Shown: positions 19,440 to 49,634 of the stretch, piece by piece
How positions within the stretch are numbered: position 1 is the first letter of the stretch
Layout: every line of letters begins with the position of its first letter
Assembly (NCBI RefSeq): GCF_055900595.2
Contig: NZ_JBVWEU010000002.1
Reading direction: 5' to 3' (one strand)
Origin: a plasmid
DNA length: 64,000 nt
Notes under the pieces: model-generated
What the model was told of the DNA's origin: nothing
Database searches by the model: none
Seen by the model: only the letters and a program-made list of their open reading frames with translations
Translations under genes and position numbers: made by a program

Positions 19440-19685
19440 GCCATAGCGTCTGCCCTGAGCAGGGTAGATGCTGTATCCGGCGCCGACGATAACTATGAAC
19501 AGAGTCGCTACGCTTAAAGCATTCAGGACTTGTGCTGTTTTGCGTTTTCCGTGGAGATGGAGGGTTATACCGTCAGAGCTAATAATTTGTCGACTGCATC
19601 TCCATCCGCAAGGTAACTGTAGAAGTGTCTGGTGATGCTGCCAACTTACTGATTTAGTGTATGATGGTGTTTTTGAGGTGCTCCA

Positions 19686-21992
<2,307 letters not shown>

Positions 21993-22342
21993 CTAAATCG
22001 CGCCAGCGCTGGCTGTTTTACGCGTATGACAGTCTCCGGAAGACGGTTGTTGCGCACGTATTCGGTGAACGCACTATGGCGACGCTGGGGCGTCTTATGA
22101 GCCTGCTGTCACCCTTTGACGTGGTGATATGGATGACGGATGGCTGGCCGCTGTATGAATCCCGCCTGAAGGGAAAGCTGCACGTAATCAGCAAGCGATA
22201 TACGCAGCGAATTGAGCGGCATAACCTGAATCTGAGGCAGCACCTGGCACGGCTGGGACGGAAGTCGCTGTCGTTTTCAAAATCGGTGGAGCTGCATGAC
22301 AAAGTCATCGGGCATTATCTGAACATAAAACACTATCAATAA
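21993..22342 (+). pseudogene. insB: IS1 InsB, C-terminal part (split by IS100)
   Basis: resumes in frame with [15 protein letters not shown]... immediately after the IS100 right end. Confidence 0.85.
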
Positions 22343-22357
22343 GTTGGAGTCATTACC

Positions 22358-22366
22358 TCCTGCATG
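22358..22366. repeat. 9-bp target-site duplication tcctgcatg (right copy)
   Basis: immediately follows the IS1 IRR end at 22357; identical to 7341-7349. Confidence 0.7.
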
Positions 22367-22678
22367 ATGAGGTAACATGAGGCCTTTACCAATCCGCGCG
22401 CCCAGGCCGATATCACATCCATACCGTTCCATAAGTGCATTTTTTATCTTTATCGCACATTTCCTTTGTTTTTGGTTTCCAGAGATAAACATCTCATTGG
22501 CCAGGCGCCACCACATCAGAAAGCCTCGTTGTCTCTGCAACCCGTTTCTTATCAGGCGGTGTAAGACAAACTTATCCCGCATGATGACTTCGGCTTTCCA
22601 GTATTCTGACAGATTACGACTTTTACCTGACAATAAAAAGGTGGCAATATGAAAATAAGCTAATGGATTTTTCATCAT
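22358..22678 (-). pseudogene. hexapeptide-repeat acetyltransferase (CysE/WcaB-like), N-terminal half
   Basis: ORF MMKNPLAYFH...GCDIGLGARIGKGLMLPHHAG runs into the IS1 end; joins in frame with the fragment at 7071-7349 through the shared 9-bp repeat (HAG codons). Confidence 0.6.
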
Positions 22679-22781: not shown

Positions 22782-23069
22782 CTATCTCATTCTCTCACTG
22801 GCGAGATTATAAACGTTACTACGTTCACGTTTACCTACCGCGACAACCGCAATAATTAGCATGTCATCAATAACCTGATAGACCAGACGAAACCCCGATG
22901 CGCGAAGTTTGATTTTGTAGCAGTCTTTTAATCCACGCAGTTTTGCGGAAGGAATATGAGGATTTTCGCTGCATTTCTTTAGTTTTTTCGCAAACTGCTG
23001 TTGAATGGATTTATCCAGTTTCAGCCATTCTTTGAGCGCATCATCCCTGAATTTTACTGTATAAGTCAT
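22782..23069 (-). CDS. RelE/ParE-family toxin
   Basis: 95 aa, overlaps the upstream antitoxin gene by 4 nt; plasmid addiction-module context. Confidence 0.75.
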   Translation of the reverse strand: MTYTVKFRDDALKEWLKLDKSIQQQFAKKLKKCSENPHIPSAKLRGLKDCYKIKLRASGFRLVYQVIDDMLIIAVVAVGKRERSNVYNLASERMR

Positions 23070-23317
23070 AAATAACTGTCCAGGTCCACATCATGCAGTG
23101 GCTGATTGCTGCGTTCAGTAACCAGTTTCACCAGTTCCTGGTCATCCAGCGCATCAAGCATCCTTTCATAGAGTTCCGCAGGCACACAGTAGAATGCCGG
23201 CTGATTCCGGTTAAGAATGGCGACAGGATAACCATCTCCGGCACTGACTGTAGCCATAGGATTTTTTTTCAGTTCACTGACACTTGCACTGGTGTCAGAC
23301 AGAATGATGTTAGGCAT
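23066..23317 (-). CDS. antitoxin (RelB/StbD, Phd/YefM-like)
   Basis: 83 aa, immediately upstream of and overlapping the RelE-like gene. Confidence 0.7.
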   Translation of the reverse strand: MPNIILSDTSASVSELKKNPMATVSAGDGYPVAILNRNQPAFYCVPAELYERMLDALDDQELVKLVTERSNQPLHDVDLDSYL

Positions 23318-23336
23318 AACGTACCTTTGAGACTGT

Positions 23337-23382
23337 TTAACAAGTCTTAAAGATACCTCTGAAAGGACCGGTTAACAAGTCT
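23337..23382. promoter_or_regulatory. putative operator/promoter of the antitoxin-toxin operon
   Basis: direct repeat ttaacaagtct at 23337-23347 and 23372-23382, 20-65 bp upstream of the antitoxin start. Confidence 0.35.
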
Positions 23383-23929
23383 GTATTACTCATACTTTTG
23401 CAAATACATTTAATGCTGGTTTTATTGTTCTGATGCCGCGTGAGCGGCATGGAAGGCGGTATAATGTAGCTACATATGGCACAAGAGTAAAACCGCCGAA
23501 GCCCGGCGTAAGCCGGTACTGATTGATAGATTTCACCTTACCCATCCCCGTCCTGCTAAGCCATGCCCGCTGTCAGCCATGAGAGAGCTTATGTGCGCGG
23601 TCGGAGTGGTCCCGACGAGGGTTTACCCGAAGTCGGGGCGTATCTCCGCGTTAGCGGGCCGTTAGGGCCGCTTACGAGCGTGTACACGATACGTCCAGCC
23701 AGAAGACTGACAGCGATGACAACGTAGTTACAACATTCATAATTAAAAGCGACTCTGTTCCGGCCCTTTGGGCCGGGGCGGGGCCGCTTTTCAGTTATGA
23801 GGGAGGGGCTTTGTGGTTTCGGTTCTGCGCTGGACCGGGGTTTTCTTGGCGGTTGTATTTGAGTGTTGTAACTAAAATGGCTCCGGTCGGGGCCCGCCGC
23901 TTGCGGTGGGAGGTGCATATCTGTCTGTC

Positions 23930-24280
23930 CACAGGACAGGCAGTGAATAGGTTTTCTTTTTAAATGAATGTAATTAAGTAGTTTAAAGGAGATATAAACA
24001 GGTGTTTAAAAGATACATTGCACCCTGTAAGACTGGCGGCTGGCGCTTTATGACATGAACGGTTGTAACCTTATGGGGAAGTCCCTTGCAGTTTAATGTG
24101 GATAAGCAAAATTCCCCGTCTGTGAGGCGTGTTTTGTATCGAAAACAGGGGGGGCCGGATGCTCCAGAAGGTGGATGGTGAGGTTGTTTTTTGTATGTGG
24201 TGCTGATTTTTTGTGCACTGACGGGCTTCAGGCGTGCGAATGCCTCCGGCGCGTGCCAGATTATTCTGAGGAGGTCACTT
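23930..24280. other. IncFII-type vegetative origin (oriR) region
   Basis: AT-rich block immediately downstream of repA1 containing a DnaA box (tgtggataa at 24097-24105, TTATCCACA on the minus strand). Confidence 0.6.
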
Positions 24281-25150
24281 TCAGGGGGAAGCTGTGGCCA
24301 GCCGGCTGTAATTACGGTTACGTGACAGAATCATGCGCTCCTTCACACGACGCTCCACTTCGCGTTTTACCGCCTCACGATTGGCAGTGAAGCGCCCTTC
24401 TGAGATTTCACGTGTCAGCTGCCGTTTCACCAGGGTGACAATTTCCTGACGTTCCCTGCTTGCATCACGACGCGCACGGGCACGCTTTATTCCCCGGGAC
24501 TTAAGCTCTGTCTGGTAACTGCGGAAACGCTCACGCACAAAACGCCAGGCCTTCGCTATCAGCTCATCCATACTCAGCGCATCCAACCCCTGCTTTTTAC
24601 GCTGTCGGTTTTCCCATTCCACACGACTGCGACGCGCGGCGGCCACCGCATCCTCTGACACATCGAGGGCGGTAAACAGCGACGGTGTGAGTGTGATGTC
24701 GGTCGGAATGTTGCAGCCAATAAGTGGGTCATATTCCGTCTGGTAGGTAATCAACCCCAGCTCTGACAGAAACATCAGGGCACGGGTGGCACGGGTGATG
24801 GAGAGTTTTCCGGCAGCAGACTCCGTCGCCAGTCCGCACTCAATGGCCAGTGTGGTGATGGAGCACTGGACGCGGTTGGCCAGCGGGTCATAGTGGAAAC
24901 ACAGCCCCTGCAGCAGCGCATCAATAGCCCGTCGACGCAGCACCGGTGGCATGCGTCGACGCAGACCACGCGAACGGGCATGCGCCACATGAATGGCGAA
25001 ATCAAAACGGGAAGTGAAGCCCAGCGCCTTTTCCATCAGTTTTTCGCAGAACTTCAGCGTTCCGGCACCTTCACGGGGTGTAAACACCGGATTCGGGTTC
25101 TTTACCTGGCGGTAATACGTTTGTTGAAGATCAGCCACACCATCCTGCAC
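24281..25150 (-). CDS. repA: IncFII replication initiator RepA1
   Basis: 289 aa; [33 protein letters not shown]... through ...[14 protein letters not shown] matches R100/R1 RepA1. Confidence 0.9.
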
Positions 25151-25214
25151 TTACAATGCGCAGAAGGAGTGAGCACAGAAAGAAGTCTTGAACTTTTCCG
25201 GGCATATAGCTATA

Positions 25215-25312
25215 CTCCCCGCATAGCTGAATTGTTGGCTATGCGGTTTTATGGGGCCCCGGTAATCTTTTCGTACTCGCCAAAGTTGAAGAAGATTATC
25301 GGGGTTTTCGCT
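25215..25312 (+). ncRNA. copA: CopA-like antisense RNA of the repA1 leader
   Basis: two stem-loops on the plus strand (25220-25246 and 25257-25304); second loop contains cgccaaa and is followed by a T-run; boundaries approximate. Confidence 0.45.
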
Positions 25313-25450
25313 TTTCTGGCTCCTGTACATCCACATCAGAACCAGTTCCCTGCCACCTTATGGCGTGGCCAGCCACAAAATTCCTTAAACGATCAGCAAT
25401 CTATCACGCACACCAGAAACAGGCAAGAATGTGATGTCGCTACATTTTAG

Positions 25451-25699
25451 TTAGCTGAAAGCACTCTTCTGCTTTATCAGTTCAGCAATCATCTCAGCCT
25501 GAGTAACACCTTCAGCGTCACACATCTCCTGTAATTGCGCTTTTAACGCAGCAGGAATGAACACTCTGAGTTCTTTATGTGTGGCACGTTTTCTTGCCAG
25601 AGATGCCTGCTGACGTTCTGCAAGCGTCAGAGGATTACCTTTTCGGTATGCTCGCTTTGTACCTGATGAGGAAGTCACTGCATTTTCTGTCTGCGACAT
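25451..25699 (-). CDS. copB: replication regulatory protein RepA2 (CopB)
   Basis: 82 aa, [11 protein letters not shown]... resembles IncFII CopB. Confidence 0.8.
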
Positions 25700-25982
25700 C
25701 TCGCCTCCTCAATTCTCAAACAGGGATCGTTTCGCAGAGGATACTACAGTTTTTTGAAATCAGCGACTTGAAAGTTGTGATGATGATCTGTGTTGGCGCA
25801 CAAATCATGTCTGATTACGACCGTTTAATGTGATTTTGATGATGAAATGACTGAAAAACAGGAAATGCCTTAACATGGATGCCGGCCCCGGGCGGGACCG
25901 GCTGTTTCTGGCATGTCGGGTGTCTGCCCCTGAAATACCTCACACTTCCGGAAAGCGGGGACTTCCGTCCCCGCCCGGCAGC

Positions 25983-26132
25983 TTACTTCCGTGCTTCGTA
26001 GGCCAGAGTTACCTGCACCACTGTATTTCCCCTGTGAATATTCAGCTCACATAACCGTTCTCTGAATATCAGTGAAAAACACAACACCGTGGCGCACACG
26101 GCGAGCAGCCCGATAAGGGCATATTTCGTCAT
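25983..26132 (-). CDS. srnB: Hok/Gef-family toxin (SrnB-like)
   Basis: MTKYALIGLLAVCATVLCFSLIFRERLCELNIHRGNTVVQVTLAYEARK; an overlapping upstream reading frame (MKYLNTTDCSLF...) resembles the mok/srnB' leader. Confidence 0.75.
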   Translation of the reverse strand: MTKYALIGLLAVCATVLCFSLIFRERLCELNIHRGNTVVQVTLAYEARK

Positions 26133-26341
26133 AAACTTTGACCTCTCTGCAAAGAAGAGGCTACAATCAGTAGTGTTAAGGTACTTCATGCAGACCTCAC
26201 GAGTTAATGGATTAACGAGTGGGGTCTTCGCATTTCTGGTACCTGCGTCTTGCCTGAACCAGAAAGGCTCAGACACCCGCCGCGATAATACCACATTCCT
26301 GTCTGGTTACGACGATCTCCATGCCCCCGGTTTTTATTGCA

Positions 26342-26416
26342 GAAACGCCGGGAGCGGGGAAAACTTGCTTTTTCCCGTTTCCGGGGTTGGACAACTGAGC
26401 AACGCGAAGGCGTCAG
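26342..26416. repeat. structured repeat, copy A (hairpin plus conserved 3' tail)
   Basis: gaaacgccgg...hairpin...tttccggggttggacaactgagcaacgcgaaggcgtcag; paired with the copy at 37222-37293. Confidence 0.5.
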
Positions 26417-26915
26417 CTACGATGTTCCGGTGACTGCTGATCAGCCCCTGTTGTATTCAGCCATTCTCCGGTCATCTGCAGCAGTTTTCTGGCATCGTGG
26501 CTTCTGAGCAACGGAATACCAGCCTGCCTCAGAACCTCTTCCAGAAGAATATCCCGGCGTCTGCGTTCCGGTCGTAAATGGCTGGCATCATCCAGCTCTA
26601 CTGCTGCAACAATACTGAACGAACGCCGCTCAACGATAACCACATCAACATGCCACTGAGACACCATCCTGAATAACTGCCACCACTGGCGTGATCGTGG
26701 CCGGATATTCCCGTTCAGCTGGACGATATCCGCGACCCGTACCTGCGGACACAGATACCACCGCTGGACAGTATTCGCTCTGCATCACCGGTCCGTATAC
26801 CTGCCGTATGCAATTGCATCAGCAAAGGAGAATGCTGATTTACACTTCTGAGGATAATCCGGATAAGTAACGCTGCAATAATCAGAACAATGAGAATAAA
26901 AATAATCAACTTCAT
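26413..26915 (-). pseudogene. hypothetical protein, apparently frameshifted (two adjacent ORFs)
   Basis: ORF 26715-26915 (N-terminal hydrophobic segment) and ORF 26413-26667 lie in tandem in different frames. Confidence 0.25.
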
Positions 26916-27670: not shown

Positions 27671-27915
27671 GTTATTCTCCATATCAGATAAATGGCACCT
27701 GTATTTCAGGCATCCTGAACATTGCAGCACACAATGAATAACACCTTATTTTGTGAAATAAATCACAAAATATAAAATCACGACTTAATACGGAAAAAAC
27801 TCTGTGCTACTCAGAACTGTCCGGTCATACTGCCCGACCGGATATTAAAAAAAGCAAATCTCATAAACTCCTTTCAGCCTTCTGACTTCTGGTGTAATGA
27901 AGGCTGCTTTTTTCA

Positions 27916-28128
27916 TTACACCCTTCCCCGGCAGCGCCGGTGGCAGTGTTCAGCCTTTTTCCGGGCAAACTGCTGCCAGTCTGTCCGGGGAGCTATGCAG
28001 GCAGCCCGTCGCCATGCTTCTGCCGCTTCCATCCAGCGTCCACTGACCTCCAGAATAACGGCCCGCCCGCCGGCACGCTGGTAACGCCAGACCTGACCGT
28101 TCCGTGAACTGTTTCTGAATCCATTCAT
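27916..28128 (-). CDS. hypothetical protein
   Basis: 70-aa ORF downstream of finO. Confidence 0.3.
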   Translation of the reverse strand: MNGFRNSSRNGQVWRYQRAGGRAVILEVSGRWMEAAEAWRRAACIAPRTDWQQFARKKAEHCHRRCRGRV

Positions 28129-29643: not shown

Positions 29644-32600
29644 TCAGTCTCCGCCCAGGGTTTTCTCTTTCTGCAGGTCACGAACCATATCCCGCTCCAT
29701 CTGCTGCAGACGCTCCTGCAGCAGGTTTTCCCGGGCAACCTCGCGGACCGCTTCCCGTTCCCGTTGTGGTTCACGCAGTACACTCTCCGGCAGCGCGGCT
29801 TCCCGTTCAGTTATGGCAGCCCGGTCACGCTCCTGCCCGGCAATTTCCCTGACAGCCAGCTCTGTTTTGCCATCCGGCAGGTCAGGTTTGTTCTCTGCCA
29901 TTTTACGGACAATTTCATCTGCGCGGCGTTCCGTTTCACGGCGGATAGCCTCTTCAGCCTGCCGCTGTGCCAGTACCTCTGCCGTGACCGGTTCGCCATT
30001 TCCGGCACCCGGCTGGACGCTGTTGTCCGGGATATCCCCCCACACGCGGCCACCGGTGATGGCACCGGGATTCCACGGACGGCCTTCACCGGCGATTCTT
30101 ACCACCACACCACTGTCAGGATTATCACGGGCAATCCGGACGCCATCCTGCATATTATCAGCCAGCAGGCTCTCTCCGTTACGGCTGCCCTGCAGGGCCA
30201 CGAACTGCGCATCCCCGCTGCCTTTCACACGGCCTTCACCACTGAATCCCCGCAGCCCGTTTCCGTCATCCGTGGTCAGTGGGTTCAGCCAGATACCTGC
30301 TGACTTGCCGTTACGGTCAAACGCCGGCAGTGCCACATACGGCTGCGGATATTTGCGCCCCGGTGCAATAAACCGTGCAGGACTGTCTCCCCCGGCCAGC
30401 CCCGCCTGACGAAGAACGGCACGGCCTGCCGCCACGTCCCGCAGCTCCCGCGCCGTACTGAACAGCCGCTCTGCATTCATGACCTCCCGGTCCGGTTTCG
30501 GCTCAAACACATCGTGGGCCGTACCTTTCTGTACGGCATTGTTGATGGCATCCGTCCAGCCCTGACGGTTATCGGTGTACACCTGCACATGCTGCTTCAT
30601 ACGCGACAGGGCCACGTAGGCTGACTCAAAGCCGGCCATCAGTTTCCGGTTACCTTCCGTGCCTTCAAGCGCGATGGCAAAGGTTTCACTTGCCCCCTGC
30701 GCACCGTGGGCGGTGATGGCATAAGCCAGGTCAATATGTTGCTCTGCCCGCTCCTGACCGGGGCGAATCACCCGGGTCTGCTGTCCGTCCGACAGCGTGA
30801 CACTGTCACCGGAAACCGCTGTCACCGTCCAGACGCTGTTGGCCACATAGCCGCGCTCCCGATCACTCTTCGTGAAGCGCATCCGGTCACCGGTTCCCAC
30901 CCGGATGGTGTCCGGGGTGTACAGTGTGACGCCTTCAGCCACCGCCTCCCGGGGCGAAATCAGCCGCGTGTTACCTTCCGCATCCTGCAGGGTTATCAGC
31001 CCGTCATCCTTACTGATACCGGCAATCCGGTGATACGCATTATCCACCAGGACAAGTGCGTCCCGATGTGTCTCCCAGGTGGAGAGACGACGCAGTTCTC
31101 CGTCACGTATATTCGCTGTGTTCAGGACAGGCACCATGACCTGCTCTTTGCCCAGCTCACCGGCCTTTTCCCGTGCATCATGAATCATGCTGTTCAGTAC
31201 GCGCCGGTCCTCATTCAGGTGTGTGACAATCAGCGTCTGCTCCCGTGCTTCCGGTGTCCTGCCGGTATAGTCGCGGACAATGGCTTCATACAGTGTCATG
31301 GGGATATCCGGGAAAGCCTCGCCTTTCAGCATCGCCTTCTGCTGCGCTTCTGCCAGTTTCGCTTCCTGGCTGTGACTGAACTCCGTCACGGAGTGCTCCG
31401 GTGCCCATGCGCCCTCCAGACGTGGCACCTGAGACGGTTTCACGCTCTCAAGCCCGGACAGTGCCCTTTCCACATCCCGGTTAATCAGGCTGTATACCGC
31501 CTCCCGCAGTTCCGGCGTCTGACGCACAATCTCCTTCATGATGACCACATCGGCAGCACTGCGCGTCTGCTGGAGACGGAAAGGCTGACCGGGCGCGATG
31601 GCCTGCAGCTGGTCCGTGTCACCGCTGGCCACAGCCCGACCGCCACCGGCCGCAATCAGGGCGTATGCCCGTGCCATGTCGGTATTGCCCACCATTGAGC
31701 TCTCATCGAGCAGGAACAGCGTGTTGCTGAAATCCGGCGTTTCTCCGCTGCGCTGCTGCATCTGCGTGTCATGCAGAAAGGACGCCAGTGTCTGTGCATC
31801 CACGCCGGCGCTGCGCATCTCCCCGACCGCACGGTGCGTGGGGCCCAGCCCAACGACACGGGGACGCTCACTCTCCGGCAGCATGTTCACGGCTGACATC
31901 ACCGCCCGGAACTGTGTGGTCTTACCCACGCCGGCATAGCCCTGCACCACCGTGAAACGGTCGGACGTTTCCAGTATCATGCGGGTGGCGGCACGCTGTC
32001 CTGATGTCAGTTTCTCCATGAGTTCGCCAGGTACTCTCTCCATCAGCGGCGTGACCGCCTCCTTACCTTCGAGAATATGGCGAAGAATGCTCTTTTCTGC
32101 CTCATACGACGCACGGGAAACCAGCAGGCCTGTGCCATAGCCTTTTGCCACATCCACATACAGTAAATCACCGCGTTTTATCTGCGCATTGATTTCCCCT
32201 CCCAGGTCGATAAAACTGGTTCCTTCTGCAGCAAACGACTTCGCCTCTGTCAGCAGGTCCACCATGCTGAAGGCCAGGTTTTTACTTTCCAGCACAGGAA
32301 GGGCCAGATGAATAGCCTGCTGTGCCGGCGTGTGAAGCCCGGCTTTCTGCAGACTGATAGCGGTTTCCAGCAATGTCTCACCGGCACGCGCCTTTATCTG
32401 CTCAGAAACCACCGTAAAGGAGGGATGACGGGCAAGTTTTTCCGCAGTACGGGTTTCATCCAGTGAAGAATACAGCCGGACATCACGACCGCTGCGGGCC
32501 AGACCGTTCAGGGTGGCGTTGTCCATTGCCATCTGTGTGACGGAGGCAAAAACCTTCGCACTGTCGCTGACGGAATGCCCGGGCGTTTCCACCCAGCCGT

Positions 32601-34914
32601 TCTCCAGCTTCAGTGCCGTGAACGGTGAATCAGCCACAGGCAGGGTGGCCGGTTCAGCCCGCCCCGGCACAACAACCGTCATCGCATCTTCACTGACGGA
32701 TGCCACCTGCAGGCGGTCACCGCCGGAGACGCGGAGTCCGGGAATTTTCCCTGTCACCCTCAGACGCTCGCCGTCTGCCACCGGCATTTTTTCCGGCCGG
32801 AACAGCGACCAGCTGCTGTCCAGAGAAGAAATACGCACCACCTGCGTTTCACCCTGCGCATCCCGCAGGGTCAGGCTGTGACTCTGCGCCGTCACCCGGT
32901 CTATCACATAGCGGTCATGACTGCGTGTCTCCGGGTTCCACTGCTCCATCACCATTCCCGGGCGGTACATATCCCGCAGATAACGGCTCCGGCTGTCCAG
33001 CCAGACCGGTGACAGTGCCGTCATGGTCACCTCCTGATGTCCGAGCACGCCCTGTGTTTTCAGCTCACTGCGAATGGCCTGTGTCAGTATGGCCTGTTCC
33101 CGTACCCCGCTGACCTGTGCCACGCTCTCTTCTCCGGCTTTCACGCTGGCCGCAAAATCTCCTGCCAGCCGGGCATAGCGGACATTACGGTCCGGTTCAC
33201 TGATGATGGTGGCCGGTCGCTGTTCTCCCCCCTGCCAGCGATATGTGTTCACCCCGGCATCCTTCATGGCCATCAGCGCACTGCCTGTACCGGTTCGCTG
33301 CCCGCTGTCGGTTATCAGGACCTGTACGTTATGACGTGCGGCACCGTCCAGCAGGGTTAACGTCTCTTTCAGGGAGAGTTTTTCGCCCTGGTCAACGATA
33401 ACAGTACTGCCCGGCGTGAAGGCCATGCCTTCCAGCAACTGACGACGTCCGGTTATCAGCTCACCGGACAGCCGTTCATCCTGCTTCAGGTTCATCTGCG
33501 AGCGACGGTCAGCAGCGATAATCTGCACTTCCCGCCCCTGCTCCCGGGCCATCATGACCAGTTCAGCCACCCGCTCACGCTGCCCGGCTGCACCGCCCTG
33601 CCCGGACACAATGGCCAGCGACGGACGGTCCTGTGCCAGAACACTGACCGCATCGCTGTAACCAGCCGTCCGGGGGACACTTTTCTCCGGATGTACGGTC
33701 ACCCGGTTCTGTTTCATGATGTCACGACTGAGTGCCCGGACGGACAGCTCATCGAGCACATGAATTCCTGATGCGAACAGCCCCTTCTCACGGTCGAGGG
33801 GGATAAGCTGCTCACGACTGATGGTCTCATCGATACCGGCGCGTGCCCGTTCAATCACACCATTTTCCGGCGGCAGTATACCGACCGTTCTGGCCAGCAC
33901 GTCCGTGTACGTAAACTGCACTTTTCGTTCACTTAATCCGGCAATCGCCTGTGTCACCGCCTGCTGCACATCCGGCCCCTCCTGTGAAACAGCCCCGGGC
34001 GCCTGCGTGCGGGTCTCCGCACGCTGATCCGCCGCGTCACGATATGCCCGGATGTCGAACCCGGTTTCCTTCAGCGTCTGCATCCATTCAGCCATTCTGA
34101 CTTCAGGATCGACGTGCTGTTTGGATTTTCGCGTATCCAGTGCCGCCACATCCCGGGATTTCAGCGAGGCATCTTCCCCGACGGCCTCCCGGATTGCCTG
34201 TGAGCGTCCGGAAAAGGCCTCCACCGGTACGCCCGGCATCTCCCACATACCGTGCTTACCCACCACTTCGGTTTCATAGCCCAGCGCCTCAACCTGCTCT
34301 TTCAGTTTTTCCCGGTAGAGCCTGCCAAAGGCAATCTGATTAGCGTACACATTCTCAATGAACCCCGTTTTCCCCACTTTGTCACTGCTCAGTGTCTTCC
34401 ATTCGCCGTTATGCTGCGTGACATTAGCCACCACCGCATGCGTGTGTAACTGTGGTTCCTGATCGCGACTGGTGTCGTGGTTAAACAGTGCCATCACCAG
34501 ATTACCGGTCAGCACCGTTTCTGACTGTCCGTCCGTCATCACCCGTGTGGAGGCCAGCGCCTCCACCTGACGAACAGCAAAGTCCACGGCCTGGTTATGT
34601 GCATCAATCAGGCGCTTATCGCCACCTAACATGGCCATCATGGAGACACTTTTGGGGGCGGAGAAGGTCAGGTCGTAGCCGGGACGATGCCTGTTACTGC
34701 CATCCTGCATGCGGCTTAGATCCGCTCCGTCCGGCAGCCTTCCCTCCAGAAGACGGGTAAAAACATCCTTATCGACACTGCCCTGCAGTCCCAGCTGTTC
34801 AGCCCCCCTGCCGGCCCAGCGTTCTCCCATGCTGCCCAGCACATAGTAATTATCCTTGTCGGTATAATAGTTACCGGCACTTCCGGCCGATCTGACCTGC
34901 GCGATACTCATCAT
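29644..34914 (-). CDS. traI: relaxase/helicase TraI
   Basis: 1756 aa; N-terminal relaxase ([24 protein letters not shown]) and helicase domains. Confidence 0.95.
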   Translation of the reverse strand: MMSIAQVRSAGSAGNYYTDKDNYYVLGSMGERWAGRGAEQLGLQGSVDKDVFTRLLEGRLPDGADLSRMQDGSNRHRPGYDLTFSAPKSVSMMAMLGGDKRLIDAHNQAVDFAVRQVEALASTRVMTDGQSETVLTGNLVMALFNHDTSRDQEPQLHTHAVVANVTQHNGEWKTLSSDKVGKTGFIENVYANQIAFGRLYREKLKEQVEALGYETEVVGKHGMWEMPGVPVEAFSGRSQAIREAVGEDASLKSRDVAALDTRKSKQHVDPEVRMAEWMQTLKETGFDIRAYRDAADQRAETRTQAPGAVSQEGPDVQQAVTQAIAGLSERKVQFTYTDVLARTVGILPPENGVIERARAGIDETISREQLIPLDREKGLFASGIHVLDELSVRALSRDIMKQNRVTVHPEKSVPRTAGYSDAVSVLAQDRPSLAIVSGQGGAAGQRERVAELVMMAREQGREVQIIAADRRSQMNLKQDERLSGELITGRRQLLEGMAFTPGSTVIVDQGEKLSLKETLTLLDGAARHNVQVLITDSGQRTGTGSALMAMKDAGVNTYRWQGGEQRPATIISEPDRNVRYARLAGDFAASVKAGEESVAQVSGVREQAILTQAIRSELKTQGVLGHQEVTMTALSPVWLDSRSRYLRDMYRPGMVMEQWNPETRSHDRYVIDRVTAQSHSLTLRDAQGETQVVRISSLDSSWSLFRPEKMPVADGERLRVTGKIPGLRVSGGDRLQVASVSEDAMTVVVPGRAEPATLPVADSPFTALKLENGWVETPGHSVSDSAKVFASVTQMAMDNATLNGLARSGRDVRLYSSLDETRTAEKLARHPSFTVVSEQIKARAGETLLETAISLQKAGLHTPAQQAIHLALPVLESKNLAFSMVDLLTEAKSFAAEGTSFIDLGGEINAQIKRGDLLYVDVAKGYGTGLLVSRASYEAEKSILRHILEGKEAVTPLMERVPGELMEKLTSGQRAATRMILETSDRFTVVQGYAGVGKTTQFRAVMSAVNMLPESERPRVVGLGPTHRAVGEMRSAGVDAQTLASFLHDTQMQQRSGETPDFSNTLFLLDESSMVGNTDMARAYALIAAGGGRAVASGDTDQLQAIAPGQPFRLQQTRSAADVVIMKEIVRQTPELREAVYSLINRDVERALSGLESVKPSQVPRLEGAWAPEHSVTEFSHSQEAKLAEAQQKAMLKGEAFPDIPMTLYEAIVRDYTGRTPEAREQTLIVTHLNEDRRVLNSMIHDAREKAGELGKEQVMVPVLNTANIRDGELRRLSTWETHRDALVLVDNAYHRIAGISKDDGLITLQDAEGNTRLISPREAVAEGVTLYTPDTIRVGTGDRMRFTKSDRERGYVANSVWTVTAVSGDSVTLSDGQQTRVIRPGQERAEQHIDLAYAITAHGAQGASETFAIALEGTEGNRKLMAGFESAYVALSRMKQHVQVYTDNRQGWTDAINNAVQKGTAHDVFEPKPDREVMNAERLFSTARELRDVAAGRAVLRQAGLAGGDSPARFIAPGRKYPQPYVALPAFDRNGKSAGIWLNPLTTDDGNGLRGFSGEGRVKGSGDAQFVALQGSRNGESLLADNMQDGVRIARDNPDSGVVVRIAGEGRPWNPGAITGGRVWGDIPDNSVQPGAGNGEPVTAEVLAQRQAEEAIRRETERRADEIVRKMAENKPDLPDGKTELAVREIAGQERDRAAITEREAALPESVLREPQREREAVREVARENLLQERLQQMERDMVRDLQKEKTLGGD

Positions 34915-37076
34915 CAGAAATCATCTCCCGGCTCAACATCCTCCCCGCGCTCCCGGTGCACATTAATGTTCACCTCTTCACGACGCTGCATCTGCTGCTG
35001 GATGTCCGGATGATTTTCCTGTTGCCATGCCTCATAAGCGGCCATATCCACCACTTCACCGGATTCACTGATCCCGGGTGGCAGTTGCTGTTCCATCTCT
35101 TCTTCCGGTTTCATTTTCAGCTCCTGCTCGATCCCCCCTGCCGGAACATTCACACCTGAATCTGACTTCTTATCGTTGATGGCAGGAGACACCGGCTGTT
35201 GCGGCTGTTGCGGCTGTTCAGCCTGAGTCACGTCTTCTCCGGAAACAACTTCCGGCACATCCGGTTCGAAGAGGCTGGCCATCTGACGACCTTCTGCTTC
35301 CCTTGCGGCAAGTACGGCACTCAGACGGTTCTCCATTTCCGGGTTGATGTCACGCGGAATAAACTCCGGAGCGACCTTCGGACGTGCCTGATATTTCAGT
35401 GAGAGTTTTACTGCCGGATACGGTCCGGGCAGGGTGACATAACAGGTCAAATCCGGCAGAGACTGAATGTCAGAATAACTGACCAGCGTCTGGCGCTCCA
35501 TATCCTTACCGGTCGATACCCCGTCACGTACCGGATCAGCACCGTAGGAGTACTGCTCGCTGGCTTTCAGGTGCTCTTTCTCACCAATCTCACCGGCAGC
35601 GAACTCTGCAATCTTATGGCTGGGAGAACGGAAAAAGGCACGGGTGTTCATGACGTCAAACAGCGTGGCAGCCGCTTTCTCACCGTAGATATCTTCCAGC
35701 TGGGCATAGGACTGGATACCAAACACATAACAGCCACCGAACTTACGGGCTTCCGGCAGGATCTCCACCAGGTCCGGCAGTTTGTGTAACGTGGGTAGCT
35801 CATCACAGAAAAACCACACACGACGGTTACGGTTTTCTCCCATTGCCAGCAGACCACGAATGGCAATGGACAGCCACATGGAGATCACCGGCTTCAGGGA
35901 GGCATGGGTGTCGGCATTCGACGAGATAAACAGCCAGCCGTTTTTCTGATCTTCCCGGACACCCCGCATCCAGTCACGGATGGTAAAAGACTCACCGTTA
36001 TGCTCAATCCCCTGCAGGTAACGGATGGCTTTCACGTAGTTGGTCAGCACAGCACGGATGGAAATCGCCGTTTTCTCAATTTTCTCTTCCACCAGGTTGG
36101 CCGCCGGTGAATTACGCAGGAAGGTACGCAGTTTTTCGATTTTGATGGAAAGCAGTGTGTCCACCAGTTTGCTGTAGCTGCGGTTGGGGTCATTACGCAT
36201 CAGGTACGCCGCTTCCGCAAAAATGGTACGTCCTGAACCCTGCCAGAACGGGTCCTCTTTTGTGCCCATCGGGATCAGGGTATTTGCCGTATTATCAAAA
36301 TCCGGCTGTGTCAGACACTCCTTCCATAAATCCCAGGCGGCACAGCGGGCATCCAGCGGATTCAGGATCTTATCGATGGAGGGATCATAGTAACTTTTAA
36401 CAAATTCCCCTGAACGGTCATAAATCACCACCATATCACCGCGCTGACGGGCGTAGTTGGCCAGACGACGGATAACTTCCGACTTACCGGCCCCGACCGT
36501 GCCGTGCAGACAGAAGTTCTGGATTTCAGAATCCCGGATAATCGGCAGGTCGCCAATCCGGATATCGGAGTCCTTGCCGTCTTTTTTCAGCATCCGGGCA
36601 ACGTCTTTCGGATTGTCTGTCAGCTGACGACCACCTGTGACTTCATTTTCGCTCTGTTGTTTACCCTGACGCCCCAGAATCCAGGAGACAACAAAGAAGG
36701 TAATCAGGCAAATAACCAGTGCCACAACTGTGGCCAGAACGAATGCGGACCATAGCTGCTCTCCGCACCAGATCATATATTTATCATGCAGTACCTGAGC
36801 AGCATTCATCCGGAAGGTTTTGCCGTAATACTGGATCTCATAGACCGGCTGGGACTTGATTAAATCCCGCATGCCTTCCAGCGTGGTACACCACCAGTAA
36901 ATACAGCCGTTCACAAACGTCTGCCAGCTTATTTTTACCCATAAAACCAGACCAACGAGTATCCAGAAAAAAATAAACAGGCAGTAAAGCATGATATTGG
37001 CGATCTGGCTGAACATGCGGATACGCATGGACGCAATCTGACCGCCCTGGGTCATATCCTTTGCGTTAAAACTCAT
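34914..37076 (-). CDS. traD: type IV coupling protein TraD
   Basis: 720 aa with Walker A and C-terminal QQP repeats. Confidence 0.95.
35194..35219. repeat. 9-bp tandem repeat ggctgttgc (about 2.8 copies) encoding the TraD QQP repeat
   Basis: read directly in sequence; translates on the minus strand to QPQQPQQP. Confidence 0.8.
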
Positions 37077-38609: not shown

Positions 38610-41432
38610 TTATTGCTTGTGCTTATCCTGATACTCCTTTGCTCTTTTCATCAGTTCCTGTGGACTGTCAGCCCCGGGCATTCTTTCCTGACCCGATTTT
38701 TCTTCATTATATTTATTATTCTGAGATAATGCCTCTGTTTTATGGTGATTTTGTAGTTCAGAATACTGTCTTCCTACAATATTTTCTTCGCCACGTATGC
38801 TGCTCTGAGTATCTCCGATATTGCCTCTGTATTCTGTGACCATATTATCAACCTGATGTTTTACATCATTACGGATATTACTGTCCTGCGTTCTTTGCTC
38901 AATAATGGCCTGATGCCCCTGATGATCAGCAATAATATCCTGGCTGCCACCCCCCGAAGGTACGCTCTCCATTCCTTTACCGATGTCCCCACGGGATTCA
39001 CGCCAGGCATTATCAACACCAGGCTGCACCTGTTCCTGAACAAAAGACCACGCCATAGCCCGACGGCGTTCTGCAATCTCCGGGGAACTGGTGTTTGTCA
39101 GAATAGCTTCGGCATCCTGCGGCGCGTGTTTCATCACATACTGTGCAAACTGTTGCGACAGGTCTTCACTCATCTGCCCACTCATGCTTTCAGTACGGGA
39201 TGCCATTTCAGCATATTCATGGCTGCGGGTCATATTCGTCGTGTACTGGTCGTAACTCTGTTTTGCTGAGTTCAGGGCTGCAGACAGCTGGTCCACACGG
39301 GAATCGGCATTATTGTCCGTATGGCTGCCGGATTCACTGACCTTGCGACTGGTAAAGTAATCGCTGGCCTCTTTAAAGTCTTGTGTAGCCCTGGCATCGA
39401 TATCATGGCGAGCATCATGGCTGGCCCGTGAACCACTGCTGGCCTGATGCGCATCCTCATCACTCCAGTCAATACTTGCCCGACCACCACCTCTAACACC
39501 TACGCCACCACCAACACCAAGAATTTTAGGTTTAACCCCCCATTCAGCATGAGCATCGCCATACATCCCCGCAGAACCTCTCGTACTTCTTGATGCCAGT
39601 TCTCTTGTCGCCTGCTCATTACTGATATTATGCGCCTTCGCATAGCTTTCCACTGCGCTGCGCATACGGCTGGCCATCATGGAGTCCTGTGCACTCATCG
39701 TGCTGTCAGCACCACCGGTGACAGAATCACTGCTCCCCCGGTTAGAACCAAACTGACTGAGCGAGTTCCAGGCACTGGCAATACTGCTGCTGAACCCATG
39801 CAGGGCGCTTTCTGCTCTGTTCGACGCCTCCCGGGCCATTTCCTGTTGTGCCGCCGCAATCTGACGCGTTGCATTGATACCGACCGGTAAACGGGACATC
39901 GCCCCGCTCGCATCCATCACCATATTACCGTCACGGGTCTGTGTGGCGGTTGCGCCACTGCCGGTCTGGTACATCATCTGACCAAACGACGTGGTGCTGT
40001 TGGTGCTCCAGCTGAATCCGTTCACGTTTTCCGTCTGCATGTTGCCGTAGGAGTAATTACCGTCAACCACACTACCTGCCGCACTGGCAGTCGGGCTGAT
40101 AGCAGAGGAAGCGAAATGGCTGTACACACTGGAAAATCCGGCCCCGAGTCCCCTGACCATCATCCAGGATAATGGCGGGATCATCATGGAAAGATACCCG
40201 GCAGTGGAAGCCAGATCGGAGTATTTCAGCTGTATCTGTGAAATTTCCGAGAGCACCACCGGTGCACCATTCTGCTTCGCATAAAATGTCATGGCGCTGT
40301 TCAGAATGGCGTACAACATTGGCCATGACTGCAACCACATCAGGGCAAACACATAGCCTTTCAGGACGGACAGCGTCAGTTTGTTGAAGACAGCCGCCAG
40401 TACCAGAAGCGGGAAAATACCGATGGCGATCCCCGTCAGGATGGTCTGCGTCATGGGCAGTGTCCGCATCGCCACATGACCGATGGAGACATGTGCCAGA
40501 CGTTGCTTCTCCATCGATGACGTGGTGGCCAGATTCACCAGGCTGGCTGAATCACCATTACGCGCGGCATAACTGGTGATCCCCTCCTTCAGCGCATTGA
40601 TGGTGACATTCTGGCGGATGATCTGGCTGGCTGATTTACTTGAGCCATAGAAGTAACTGTAACTGTCGCCAATCAGCGTACTGAACAACAGGTTCGGATC
40701 AGGGCGTCCACCAAATAGCTGCTGGGCATAATAATGCCAGGTTTTTCCGCCACTCTGTGTATCCAGATTCAGCTTGTCTTTCAGCGAAACCGACGCGTCC
40801 TTACAGGTCACGAAATTATTATTGCTGTCATAAACGCCCCGTAGCGGACTGGGGCGGGAAAAAATCAGCGTGTAGGGATCAGCGGAGGCCATCAGCTCCT
40901 CCAGCGTGTATTTGTGGTTCAGGTAAATATCCCCCATCACGCAGTTCTGCACATAATCCTGGAAAAGATTGGCGATTTCCGGATTGCGGGACAAAAAGTC
41001 GGTGCTTTTTGATACCAGTTCTGCGCCAAACAGCATCCCCGTTTTGCTGTAGGTGACACTGTCCGGTTGCGTGAAGATCATCTCGTAACTGGCCACCATT
41101 GCATGCCCGATACGGGTCGTCAGTGAAAGTGGCATCGCCAGTCCGACCGGCACATTATCCACCCGGTGAACTTTGACCAGGTCACTGTTATCAATAATCT
41201 GCACCGATGTGCGGACATTAACCAGCAGGCTGATAAGCACAAACACGGCCACCCAGCCCAGCAAATCCATCACGTTGTGCCGCTGTACCCACATTACGGC
41301 CACCGCGAGAACAGACAATGTGAGCGCAATTTTTTCAATGGAATCCCACGTCCGGGTCCCCATAAAGGCGGCAATGGCATTCAGGTTATTCCGCAACCAC
41401 TCACCACCGGCAATCACATAAACTTCATTCAC
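38610..41432 (-). CDS. traG: mating-pair stabilisation protein TraG
   Basis: 940 aa; position and size. Confidence 0.9.
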   Translation of the reverse strand: MNEVYVIAGGEWLRNNLNAIAAFMGTRTWDSIEKIALTLSVLAVAVMWVQRHNVMDLLGWVAVFVLISLLVNVRTSVQIIDNSDLVKVHRVDNVPVGLAMPLSLTTRIGHAMVASYEMIFTQPDSVTYSKTGMLFGAELVSKSTDFLSRNPEIANLFQDYVQNCVMGDIYLNHKYTLEELMASADPYTLIFSRPSPLRGVYDSNNNFVTCKDASVSLKDKLNLDTQSGGKTWHYYAQQLFGGRPDPNLLFSTLIGDSYSYFYGSSKSASQIIRQNVTINALKEGITSYAARNGDSASLVNLATTSSMEKQRLAHVSIGHVAMRTLPMTQTILTGIAIGIFPLLVLAAVFNKLTLSVLKGYVFALMWLQSWPMLYAILNSAMTFYAKQNGAPVVLSEISQIQLKYSDLASTAGYLSMMIPPLSWMMVRGLGAGFSSVYSHFASSAISPTASAAGSVVDGNYSYGNMQTENVNGFSWSTNSTTSFGQMMYQTGSGATATQTRDGNMVMDASGAMSRLPVGINATRQIAAAQQEMAREASNRAESALHGFSSSIASAWNSLSQFGSNRGSSDSVTGGADSTMSAQDSMMASRMRSAVESYAKAHNISNEQATRELASRSTRGSAGMYGDAHAEWGVKPKILGVGGGVGVRGGGRASIDWSDEDAHQASSGSRASHDARHDIDARATQDFKEASDYFTSRKVSESGSHTDNNADSRVDQLSAALNSAKQSYDQYTTNMTRSHEYAEMASRTESMSGQMSEDLSQQFAQYVMKHAPQDAEAILTNTSSPEIAERRRAMAWSFVQEQVQPGVDNAWRESRGDIGKGMESVPSGGGSQDIIADHQGHQAIIEQRTQDSNIRNDVKHQVDNMVTEYRGNIGDTQSSIRGEENIVGRQYSELQNHHKTEALSQNNKYNEEKSGQERMPGADSPQELMKRAKEYQDKHKQ

Positions 41433-45165: not shown

Positions 45166-45355
45166 CAGGTTTCTGCAGGTCAGTCAGGGCAGAAAAACAA
45201 AAATACAGAATAAACAGGAGCACACCGGAGTAAAAAATAACGAAAGCAGCAGCAAGTATCTCACCTGCAGTGGTTTCTTTTACCGTATCCCACGACCAGA
45301 TAATTACCGGGGAAATGACAATCGCTGTAATCAAAAGCCGGATGCGTATTCTCAT
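45128..45355 (-). CDS. trbE: TrbE
   Basis: 75-aa membrane protein (MRIRIRLLITAIVISPVIIWSW) overlapping the traF start. Confidence 0.7.
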   Translation of the reverse strand: MRIRIRLLITAIVISPVIIWSWDTVKETTAGEILAAAFVIFYSGVLLFILYFCFSALTDLQKPDERKSDERNEDE

Positions 45356-45442
45356 GAAAGGAGATCACTCAATAACTTCCATCGAGATCGGGTAATAACG
45401 GCGTTTTTCAAGGTAGTTGTCGCCTTTTGTAATAAAATTACG

Positions 45443-46348
45443 TTATGCCGCTTCTTTTTCTGGATTCAGATAAACTGCCTGAATGAGTTCCCAGTCACGC
45501 AACTGTTTGCTCCAGCGCTCAGGATGACGTTTGCGAGCTTCGCGATAAACTTTTTTTCTGGCTTCCAGTATTTGTGCGTCAATTCCGCGATGGCGTTCAT
45601 CCGGAGTAACATACTTAATACCGCTGTGCTTGTGTTCCAGGTTGTACCATCGCGTGAACTTGCTTAACCAACTTCTGGCTTCATCTATGGTTCGAAAACC
45701 ATTCTCTGGCCACCATGGACAATACTTAATCGTCCGGAAGAGCGATTCGGAATAAGGGTTATCATTGCTGACCCGGGGACGGGAATAAGAACTTAATACG
45801 CCAAGCGCGTACATTTTTGCCAGTAACGTACAACTGCGCATTGGTCCTCCGTTATCAGAATGAAGCACGAGATTGCGGGATGAACATTTTTCATTCCATA
45901 CAGCACGTTGAAGCAGTTCTGCCGCATACTGCCCAGATTCTTTCGTAAATACTTCGGCAGCAATAATTTTTCGGCTATAAATATCGACGATCATATAGAG
46001 ATAAAAATGCTGCCCCTTAACCCACGATGGGATATAACTAATATCCCAGCTCCACACCTGGTTGGGGGCTACAGCTTTGAGTACTTCAGGCCGCTTATAT
46101 TGGTGTTCACGGGTTCTCCTTGTCAGTTGGTTAGCTGATTTTAATACGCGATAAAAAGTTGATTCTGACGCGATATAAACCCCTCTGTCGGCAAGAGTCG
46201 GAACAATAATATTCGGAGACAATGATGCAAACTCCGGAGAATTGCATACATCAAGTATTCTTAATCTTTCTGTTTCTGACAGTTTATTCCCCGGGGTACG
46301 CCTTGATGCACCTGGTCTCTGATCTGTATGAACCACACCACCCTGCAT
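45443..46348 (-). CDS. IS3-family transposase OrfB (integrase core)
   Basis: 301 aa with DDE-type motifs; frame is open upstream of the first Met, consistent with frameshift fusion to orfA. Confidence 0.75.
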   Translation of the reverse strand: MQGGVVHTDQRPGASRRTPGNKLSETERLRILDVCNSPEFASLSPNIIVPTLADRGVYIASESTFYRVLKSANQLTRRTREHQYKRPEVLKAVAPNQVWSWDISYIPSWVKGQHFYLYMIVDIYSRKIIAAEVFTKESGQYAAELLQRAVWNEKCSSRNLVLHSDNGGPMRSCTLLAKMYALGVLSSYSRPRVSNDNPYSESLFRTIKYCPWWPENGFRTIDEARSWLSKFTRWYNLEHKHSGIKYVTPDERHRGIDAQILEARKKVYREARKRHPERWSKQLRDWELIQAVYLNPEKEAA

Positions 46349-46467
46349 CCAACGTTGAAGTGTTCTGACTGAAATACCAATACACTGGCAGGCTTGTGTT
46401 TTTCTCGCTCCTGAACTGACAGCCTCGCTGACCAGATTAATAATCTTCTGCCGCTCTGGAAGAGGAG

Positions 46468-47013
46468 TCAGCCTTCCTCGCTGTTGTCCCAGAGGGCATT
46501 GAACTTTTCCCTTAACATCAAAAGAGCAGCTGCTTCCGCCAGAGCTTTATCTTTACGGAGAAGTTCTTTTTCCAGTTCCCGTAACTGGGTCTTTGCTTCG
46601 CGTAATTCTTTATCAGCACGGCGACTTTCTGCCATTTTCATTTCATGAGCCTGAATGGATATAGCTCTCCATTCTTTAACTTGCTCAACAAATAACCCCA
46701 TTCTCCGACAATAATCAGCCAGTTCCATTTCAGATAATGTTGCAGTTTCAATTACAACAGAAAATCGTCGCTCCGGTGTCCATTCATTTCCATCGACAGA
46801 AGATATTTTTTCATTTTCAGGTAACAGGCCTTGTTGCACCAGTTCAAGTCTCCATCTTGCTATTACTGAAGGGCTCAGGTCCAGTTTACGAGCAATATGC
46901 CGTATGGACCAACTATAAGGTGGTAATAACCAGGTAACACCTTGTTCTTTTATATCAATTGGTACTGCATGTGCGGGCATAGTCTCTCTCCTGTGTAAAA
47001 ATCTAGGCGACAA
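46468..47013 (-). CDS. IS3-family transposase OrfA
   Basis: 181 aa (likely start MPAHAV at 46980); DNA-binding N-terminus and C-terminal coiled coil. Confidence 0.7.
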   Translation of the reverse strand: MSPRFLHRRETMPAHAVPIDIKEQGVTWLLPPYSWSIRHIARKLDLSPSVIARWRLELVQQGLLPENEKISSVDGNEWTPERRFSVVIETATLSEMELADYCRRMGLFVEQVKEWRAISIQAHEMKMAESRRADKELREAKTQLRELEKELLRKDKALAEAAALLMLREKFNALWDNSEEG

Positions 47014-47172
47014 CTATGCTGACACAGGGGGATAACATTTGAACAGATCGCTGAATAACATCGATGGAGATCACTTTTGACTCATTTTGTTATTCAGTGA
47101 TCTCCATCAATGTTATTGGAACTTCACAGGTGTGTTGATCTGTATCTTTTGCCATTCCGGTAAAGGATACCT

Positions 47173-48714
47173 ATGCCAACAGTTCCAATTTCTATGAGAA
47201 AACTTAAAGAAATTCTTAGGCTTAAATACGGTGTTGGACTCAGCCATCGACAAATTGGTCGTAGTCTTGCAATCTCCCCTTCCGTTGTATCCAGATATGC
47301 TAATCGGGCGGCTCAACTTGGCATAAAGCAGTGGCCCTTACCTACAGGATGGGATGATACAAAACTAAAACATGCGTTCCTTCAGACCCAGGTTAAGATG
47401 AAGAAGCACTCTCTGCCTGACTGGGCTACAGTACACCGGGAACTGCGTAATAAATGCGTGACGCTGCAGCTACTCTGGGAAGAATACTGTGAGCGTAATC
47501 CAGGCGGTTTTTACAGCTATAACCATTACTGCCGGATGTACCGTGAATGGCTCAAAACCACTTCACCATCAATGCGTCAGGTACATAAAGCTGGCGAAAA
47601 ACTTTTCGTTGATTACTGTGGACCTACCGTTGGCGTTACCGACCCTGAGACCGGAGAAATAAGAACTGCTCAGGTCATCGTAGCTGTTCTCGGGGCATCA
47701 AGTTACACATGGGCAGAGGCCACCTGGTCTCAGCAGCTTGAAGACTGGGTGATGAGTCATGTTCGCTGCTTCCAGTGGTTGGGTGGCGTTCCTGAACTTG
47801 TTGTTCCGGACAATCTGAAAAGCGCCACATCCAGGGCATGTAAGTATGATCCTGACGTTAACCCTACCTACCAGCAGATGCTTGAGCATTATAATGTCGC
47901 AGTTTTGCCTGCGCGGCCACGTAAACCGAAAGATAAAGCCAAAGCTGAAGTTGGCGTTCAGGTTGTTGAACGCTGGATCATGGCCCGAATCAGGCATGAG
48001 ATCTTCTACAGCCTTGCATCGCTTAATCAGCGCATTCGGGAGTTGCTGGAAAGACTGAATAACAAAATAATGCAGAAGTTGGGTTATTCACGTGCAGAAC
48101 TCTTCATCCAGCTTGATAAACCCGCACTGAAGCCTCTTCCTGAAGCCAGTTACAGTTACACCCTGGTGAAGAAAGTCAGAGTTCATGCCGATTACCACGT
48201 GGAAATCGACAAACATTACTACTCGGTTCCATGTTCGCTGTTAGGCCAGCAACTGGAAGCATGGATCTCCGGAGAACTGGTAAGACTCTTCAATCAGGGG
48301 CAGGAGGTTGCTGTGCACCCGCGCAAGCGTACTTATGGCTACAGTACCCGCAACGAGCACATGCCTGAAGCTCATCGACAGCATGCCACCTGGACGCCAG
48401 AGCGTCTTCTGGAATGGGCGGGGCACATAGGCAGTGAAACTCATAGTTATGTGCTTCATATACTGAACTCTCGTCCACATCCGGAACAAAGCTATCGCTT
48501 CTGCCTTGGACTCCTGAACCTTCATAAAAAATACAGTAAAGCCAGACTTAATGCAGCATGTGCAAGAGCTCTGAAAACAAAGGTATGGCGTCTGTCAGGT
48601 ATTAAATCGATCCTGGAAAAAGGTCTGGATAAACAACCTGTTCAGGATCCAAAACCAGATCTGTTATCCACGATGGAACACGAAAACGTACGCGGCAGTG
48701 AGTATTACCACTGA
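47173..48714 (+). CDS. istA: IS21-family transposase IstA
   Basis: 513 aa; N-terminal HTH and DDE core. Confidence 0.85.
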   Translation: MPTVPISMRKLKEILRLKYGVGLSHRQIGRSLAISPSVVSRYANRAAQLGIKQWPLPTGWDDTKLKHAFLQTQVKMKKHSLPDWATVHRELRNKCVTLQLLWEEYCERNPGGFYSYNHYCRMYREWLKTTSPSMRQVHKAGEKLFVDYCGPTVGVTDPETGEIRTAQVIVAVLGASSYTWAEATWSQQLEDWVMSHVRCFQWLGGVPELVVPDNLKSATSRACKYDPDVNPTYQQMLEHYNVAVLPARPRKPKDKAKAEVGVQVVERWIMARIRHEIFYSLASLNQRIRELLERLNNKIMQKLGYSRAELFIQLDKPALKPLPEASYSYTLVKKVRVHADYHVEIDKHYYSVPCSLLGQQLEAWISGELVRLFNQGQEVAVHPRKRTYGYSTRNEHMPEAHRQHATWTPERLLEWAGHIGSETHSYVLHILNSRPHPEQSYRFCLGLLNLHKKYSKARLNAACARALKTKVWRLSGIKSILEKGLDKQPVQDPKPDLLSTMEHENVRGSEYYH

Positions 48715-48725
48715 TACGGGATCCA

Positions 48726-49475: not shown

Positions 49476-49634
49476 AGGTAATTTAAAAACGGTTCTGTGA
49501 AAGTGACACGAACCGATCTCCATCGATGTTACTCACCGATCTCCTTCACGGTAATACGCACCGGATAAGAAAATCAATAAAACGGTTCGACGTGAATATG
49601 ACTTTCATCATTTTCCCCGGTTATTTTCCCTACC

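Follow-up and report, generated by a model that had tools for sequence, protein, structure and literature searches.

Is the cluster of maintenance genes at positions 22782-26299 of this plasmid DNA a complete IncFII replicon in a known setting, a replicon of another kind, or an intact but silent one? The window, that is the whole 64-kb stretch of DNA that was analysed, very probably carries there a complete RepFIIA-type basic replicon (IncFII, allele F64 by replicon sequence typing, RST) flanked by two post-segregational killing modules. The system is already known: the first-pass annotation, which had reported clustered maintenance functions beside an IncFII replicon, made a real observation whose interpretation is supported here, every element that it listed being recovered at its position, with all genes on the minus strand and the CopA RNA on the plus strand. 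Its list was correct but incomplete, since it passed over the leader peptide tap and both Ter sites. Of the span 22782-26294 that it gave, the left edge holds but the right one does not: position 26294 is only the start of a mechanically called open reading frame (ORF) of 103 aa with a GTG codon, and homology to the srnB locus of the F plasmid reaches about 26299. Identity, family membership, intactness and typing are established by the sequence, while the activities would follow from homology: repression by CopB, kissing of CopA and CopT, coupling through Tap, cis action of RepA1, fork arrest by Tus, cleavage by RelE, killing by SrnB and autoregulation by the antitoxin.

Read in the direction of transcription, from 26299 to 22782, the unit runs srnB locus, copB, CopA, tap, repA1, oriR, two Ter sites, direct repeats, antitoxin and RelE toxin. 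Gene order and strand logic are those of the RepFIIA replicons of R100/NR1 and R1, and the architecture of IncFII, i.e. copB, antisense CopA, tap overlapping repA1 and oriR downstream, is found in the coordinates, the family matches and the alignment with R100. The elements of the replicon are the following.

25451-25699, minus strand: copB (repA2), 82 aa, a third allele; predicted ribbon-helix-helix repressor of the repA promoter.
25188-25313, plus strand: CopA antisense RNA gene, the RNA lying at 25223-25313 and being preceded by a promoter-like TTGAAC-17-TATACT at 25188-25216.
25131-25205, minus strand: tap (repA6), leader peptide of 24 aa.
24281-25138, minus strand: repA1, replication initiator of 285 aa, GTG start, full length.
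23950-24110, minus strand: oriR (approximate boundaries, by R100 homology), with a DnaA box and an AT-rich region at about 23950-24017.
23861-23874, plus strand: Ter-like site 2, GAGTGTTGTAACTA, a match to the consensus GNRNGTTGTAAYKA, inverted relative to site 1.
23725-23738, minus strand: Ter-like site 1, GAATGTTGTAACTA, a match to the same consensus.

RepA1 aligns with R100 RepA1 across 285 of 285 residues, with 94% identity and no gap, so that the full-length repA1 reported previously is confirmed. It scores 574 bits with the curated equivalog TIGR03474 (incFII_RepA, cut-off 446.9), 606 bits with NF010313 (cut-off 478) and 89.5 bits with PF02387 (cut-off 22.9). Tap matches TIGR03475 (56.8 bits, cut-off 35.05) and shares 23 of its 24 residues with the Tap of R100, whose version ends in WCD. 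The 3' end of tap, stop codon included, overlaps the GTG start of repA1 by 8 nt as read from the sequence; this overlap is kept in R100, and such an arrangement would couple the translation of repA1 to that of tap. Throughout the unit the models for RepA1, Tap, CopB, RelE, CopA, the hok-leader RNA and Hok all score above their curated cut-offs, and there is no frameshift, truncation or insertion in copB, copA, tap, repA1 or oriR.

The antisense RNA announced by the first-pass annotation is equally clear: Rfam RF00042 matches 25223-25313 on the plus strand over model positions 1-92 of 92, at 97.9 bits for a gathering score of 60. Its predicted fold consists of two hairpins (-34.7 kcal/mol, z=-4.1), and the promoter-like sequence ends 7 nt ahead of the RNA start. 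Compared with R100, 86 of the 91 nucleotides are identical and all five differences lie outside stem-loops I and II; compared with the RepFIC CopA of F, only 77 of the 91 are identical and 10 of the 14 differences fall inside stem-loop II. The identity of both stem-loops to those of R100 suggests that the plasmid would be incompatible with IncFII plasmids through the kissing specificity of CopA and CopT. On CopT the Rfam models PK-repZ (28.9 bits for a gathering score of 44) and PK-repBA (19.8 for 45) gave sub-threshold matches, which reflect the related target hairpin of IncI/IncB plasmids; we make no pseudoknot claim from them.

The origin was also confirmed, both by homology to R100 and by the DnaA box TTATCCACA at 24097-24105. 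This box occurs only once in the window, although a single TTATCCACA 9-mer is not significant by itself, as 44 of 100 shuffled sequences have at least one. As to the surroundings, about 870 nt downstream of repA1, oriR included, are about 97% identical to R100, the AT-rich origin core is 100% identical (alignment columns 271-412), and the DnaA box is conserved. Just beyond oriR, the Ter consensus GNRNGTTGTAAYKA is matched twice in the window for 0.05 matches expected, and both cores are conserved in R100. The sites at 23725-23738 and 23861-23874 are thus predicted by consensus to bind Tus. A ter/Tus complex adjoining oriR is known in R1 (PMC4999828), with which the position of the two matches is consistent. 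An ORF of 109 aa (23589-23918, minus strand), which the Prokaryotic Genome Annotation Pipeline (PGAP) leaves without annotation and which is doubtful as a gene, covers the GC-rich sequence that separates oriR from the toxin-antitoxin promoter. It may correspond to the ORF historically called 'repA4' in R100.

Replicon typing, the check that had been proposed against IncF reference alleles, keeps repA1 within the IncFII group. In silico, both published FII RST primers (PMC11312129) match exactly once each and give a product of 261 bp. The same amplicon, at 100% identity, is given by p1517k (MW800638), a plasmid typed F64:A-:B27 by plasmid multilocus sequence typing (pMLST; PMC8072826), and by this identity the FII allele is assigned as most likely allele 64.

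An intact replicon could however be secondary or silent, with a FIB or FIA replicon outside the window driving replication and the FII unit left free to drift and recombine. The plasmids having the same FII allele do also carry FIB (F64:A-:B27), the allele is rare—nine PLSDB records hold the identical amplicon—and the unit is mosaic, as described below. On the other hand, copB, copA, tap, repA1 and oriR are all free of frameshifts, truncations and insertions; nor does the window contain another replicon, as it gives one CopA match and self-comparison reveals no second copy. We thus regard a silent FII unit as rather unlikely, and consider what follows as the description of a complete IncFII basic replicon.

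In copB this replicon departs from its relatives. The gene, also listed by the first-pass annotation, is placed at 25451-25699 by its match to PF10723 (E=4.4e-34) and to NF010256 (138 bits, cut-off 87), but the protein has only 59-60% amino-acid identity to the F and R100 alleles (60% to that of R100), the N-terminal 23 residues being nearly invariant (22/23). The region containing the repA promoter is 78-85% identical to R100 and F. That IncFII replicons otherwise nearly identical diverge mainly in copB is an old observation for R1 against R100 and is not new. The variant copB and the diverged promoter region might together make up a CopB/operator specificity class of their own, not coupled to the incompatibility based on CopA. 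We find this improbable; if true, the F64 replicon would escape cross-repression by the CopB of co-resident IncFII plasmids, yet stay CopA-incompatible with R100.

The likeness to F raises a further alternative, in which the replicon would be RepFIC (the IncFIC type, truncated in F) and repA1 a complete version of the F remnant. The srnB locus upstream is indeed of F type and absent from R100, and the MOB-suite label of pB771, which is 100% identical over the unit, reads 'IncFIA,IncFIB,IncFIC'. However, the FIC primers published for replicon typing by PCR (PBRT) fit F exactly and find no match within 3 mismatches here, the FII amplicon equals that of a published F64 plasmid, and CopA with its stem-loop II goes with R100 rather than with F, whose stem-loop II and copB allele both differ from those of our unit. 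In F, a Tn1000-type transposon severs repA1 after tap, and the half of F that was compared, bases 1-50000 of NC_002483, yielded no remainder of either repA1 or oriR. As for the label, it is an unreliable guide: R100 (NC_002134.1), the IncFII prototype, is itself labelled 'IncFIA', and p1517k (NZ_MW800638.1), which is A-negative, 'IncFIA,IncFIB,IncFIC'. We rejected the 'IncFIC' of pB771 as a refutation on this ground, and a RepFIC replicon appears very improbable. A practical lesson is that the MOB-suite labels in PLSDB, like 'IncFIC' and 'IncFIA', do not correspond to the designations of PBRT or pMLST and should not be taken for them.

On its upstream side the IncFII replicon is flanked by a locus of the Hok family, composed as follows.

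25870-26299 (end approximate), minus strand: srnB toxin locus, about 98% identical to srnB of F.
26285-26293, minus strand: extended -10-like sequence TGGTATTAT, for an mRNA from about 26278.
25983-26189, minus strand: leader ORF of 68 aa, start at 26189, which extends the toxin ORF in frame at its N-terminus.
25983-26132, minus strand: Hok/SrnB toxin ORF, 49 aa.
25918-25926, minus strand: 3' fold-back element, predicted to pair with the 5' end of the mRNA.
26138-26245, plus strand: candidate SrnC (Sok-like) antisense RNA, about 70 nt long with inferred ends, preceded by a promoter-like TTGACC-18-TACAAT at 26138-26167.

The similarity to srnB of F runs at about 98% from about 26299 down to copB, the locus stands in F at the same place directly upstream of copB, and the toxin is identical, sharing the accession WP_001312851.1 with F SrnB. 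The toxin passes PF01848 (36 bits, cut-off 22), and the Rfam 'sok' model RF01794 matches from the presumed 5' end of the mRNA to the toxin start (94.5 bits, cut-off 59); as this match lies on the strand of the toxin mRNA, it marks the leader and not the antisense RNA. In the minimum free energy structure of the predicted mRNA (-185.8 kcal/mol, z=-8.3) the GGGUGUCUG at the 5' end is paired to the 3' element CAGACACCC at 25918-25926, which would correspond to the fold-back by which mRNAs of the hok family are typically inhibited. The candidate SrnC has a promoter match of 10/12 and a hairpin of -31.5 kcal/mol (z=-6.1), and it is complementary to the start codon region of the leader frame. Toxin ORF, leader frame, fold-back mRNA and convergent antisense, which define the Hok/Gef type I systems, are thus all found, the antisense promoter and hairpin at consensus level only. 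The toxin and its leader frame had both been seen in the first-pass annotation; the frame is, more exactly, an extension of the toxin ORF.

Downstream of the origin lies the second module.

23331-23347 and 23366-23382, no strand: two 17-nt direct repeats, lying 14-65 nt ahead of the start codon of the antitoxin.
23066-23317, minus strand: antitoxin gene, Phd/YefM-like, 83 aa, overlapping the toxin start by 4 nt.
22782-23069, minus strand: RelE-family mRNA-interferase toxin gene, 95 aa.

The pair itself had been recognised earlier and stands, although its two members are not equally well placed. The toxin matches E. coli RelE in the PDB over residues 1-93 (E=1e-29), E. coli RelE being its only match there; it conserves K52, K54, R61, R81 and Y87 of E. 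coli RelE in the alignment, passes the cut-off of TIGR02385 RelE_StbE (35.3 bits for 27.9) and matches Pfam PF05016 (E=1.5e-15). These five residues have a catalytic role in RelE. Because of the PDB match, the conserved active-site residues and the RelE_StbE score, we consider the downstream toxin to be, as judged from its sequence, a true RelE; a gyrase poison of the ParE type is hardly credible, for if the best Pfam model, PF05016, is named ParE_toxin and the PGAP label in the PLSDB table is 'RelE/ParE family', this Pfam model spans both branches, the only PDB matches are to E. coli RelE, whose active-site residues are conserved, and the current RefSeq name, for a protein above the RelE_StbE cut-off, is 'RelE family toxin'.

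The antitoxin has PhdYeFM_antitox (PF02604) as its best family (E=3.5e-5, 23.9 bits, under the threshold of 29.8) and gives a weak YafN-like match of 41 bits for a cut-off of 99; the identical protein WP_001132900.1 is named Phd/YefM family antitoxin by PGAP, and relatives at 91% identity carry the identical antitoxin. Compared with the chromosomal RelBE of E. coli and with the plasmid StbDE type, the toxin thus aligns end to end with E. coli RelE, keeps the catalytic residues and passes the RelE_StbE model, whereas the antitoxin is not RelB-like but weakly similar to Phd/YefM/YafN. The StbDE type combines a RelE toxin with an antitoxin of Phd/YefM fold. The direct-repeat operator announced upstream of the pair is confirmed as far as the repeats go: they are identical at 15 of 17 positions with a spacing of 35 nt, each contains an imperfect palindrome centred on GTTAAC, and the chance of such a pair in a region of 161 nt is estimated at about 1e-3. 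We infer that 23331-23382 is a candidate autoregulatory operator.

By homology, these elements would assemble into the textbook copy-control circuit of R1/R100 supplemented by two post-segregational killing systems. copB and repA1 would be co-transcribed from the copB promoter, with CopB repressing a stronger internal repA promoter. The constitutive CopA would kiss CopT, its target within the leader of repA, by means of stem-loop II and block the translation of the 24-aa Tap; as the translation of repA1 would be coupled to that of tap by the 8-nt overlap, CopA would set the level of RepA1, and hence copy number and incompatibility. Some 170 nt further downstream, oriR would be the target on which RepA1 acts in cis, while DnaA would occupy the single DnaA box; replication would be unidirectional, and the two inverted Ter/Tus sites by oriR would confine the forks. 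Upstream, the F-type srnB would produce a stable toxin mRNA inhibited by fold-back, whose leader frame would be kept silent by the short-lived SrnC. Downstream, the Phd/YefM-like antitoxin would neutralise the ribosome-dependent mRNase RelE and probably autorepress through the two 17-nt repeats. Plasmid loss should then release both toxins.

Several points weigh against the reading as a working, fully equipped replicon. A consensus promoter scan of the region missed the minus-strand promoters PcopB, PrepA, PsrnB and that of the toxin-antitoxin pair, so that these four are placed by homology; the consensus promoter sites numbered 4 for 3.7 in shuffled sequence, the scan for promoters and terminators showed no enrichment over shuffles, and promoter calls were given no statistical weight. 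The matching of CopB to its operator is assumed, with a copB allele about 60% identical to its relatives and a repA-promoter region 78-85% identical. The antitoxin falls below the curated threshold of every family that it matches, in Pfam and among the curated models alike, and the sequence search of the PDB returned no match, i.e. no solved relative. Close relatives carry other replicons, like FIB in p1517k, and this one need not drive replication. Finally, the activities of the unit as a whole are deduced from homologous sequences.

The complete basic replicon with its two modules is a mosaic with different nearest relatives: srnB is F-like, copB a third allele, copA-tap-repA1-oriR-Ter R100-like, and the toxin-antitoxin slot variable. 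This slot after the origin is exchangeable, being occupied by pemIK in R100, by a yacA-type antitoxin in p1517k and by phd/relE here; in R100, moreover, srnB is missing from the interval that separates the DUF2726 gene from copB. Such mosaicism is well known for IncF plasmids, and the region displays the usual modular shuffling of their maintenance regions. The closest relatives, p1517k and pB771_128330 (NZ_CP120558.1), share with our unit the accessions of RepA, Tap, CopB and Hok as well as the FII amplicon, and pB771_128330 is identical over all 3513 bases.

The arrangement had been called an expected one, and rightly so. Among 5426 complete E. coli genomes, 4188 contain some part of the 3.5-kb query and 601 (about one in nine) the whole arrangement in one piece, which also occurs in at least 997 PLSDB plasmids. 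The exact combination of alleles is rare, with 5 PLSDB and 6 RefSeq records at 99% identity or more, but this rarity is ordinary allelic diversity. Beyond annotation the significance is small: the host plasmid is typed as an IncFII-family plasmid of the F64 allele with an intact replicon. NZ_CP120558.1 and its relatives also show a second, partial match to the 3.5-kb query, which by self-comparison does not lie inside our window.

Some neighbouring features deserve a mention. Next to the unit, an IS1 copy is apparently split by IS100 (IS21 family), with IS1 pieces at 19631-20039 and 21993-22367 and istA at 20884-21906; the distance from the IS1 end to the stop codon of relE is about 415 bp. 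On the other side, the DUF2726 gene (26342-26800), intact in R100 with 196 aa, is broken here: compared with R100, about 80 bp are missing near 26759-26765 and an 84-aa ORF is left (26413-26667). A block of insertion sequences (IS) of about 4.2 kb, at 45343-49561 between trbE/traF and traN, contains IS3-family ORFs (45443-47013, minus strand) and istAB of ISEc12/IS21 family (47173-49475, plus strand). It is absent from the tra region of the otherwise near-identical pB771, and when PLSDB was searched with the part of tra that bears the IS block, none of its records shared these junctions. In the leading and transfer region, three Rfam antisense-RNA families exceed their gathering scores.

27834-28019, plus strand: AS-pc02 (178 bits).
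31989-32065, plus strand: AS-traI.
40628-40713, plus strand: AS-traG.

In traD, at 35193-35218, the window falls short of pB771 by about 83 nt, with an overlap of 26 nt at the alignment break; our guess is a difference in repeat number. Both traI (29644-34914, 1756 aa) and traD (720 aa) are intact ORFs.

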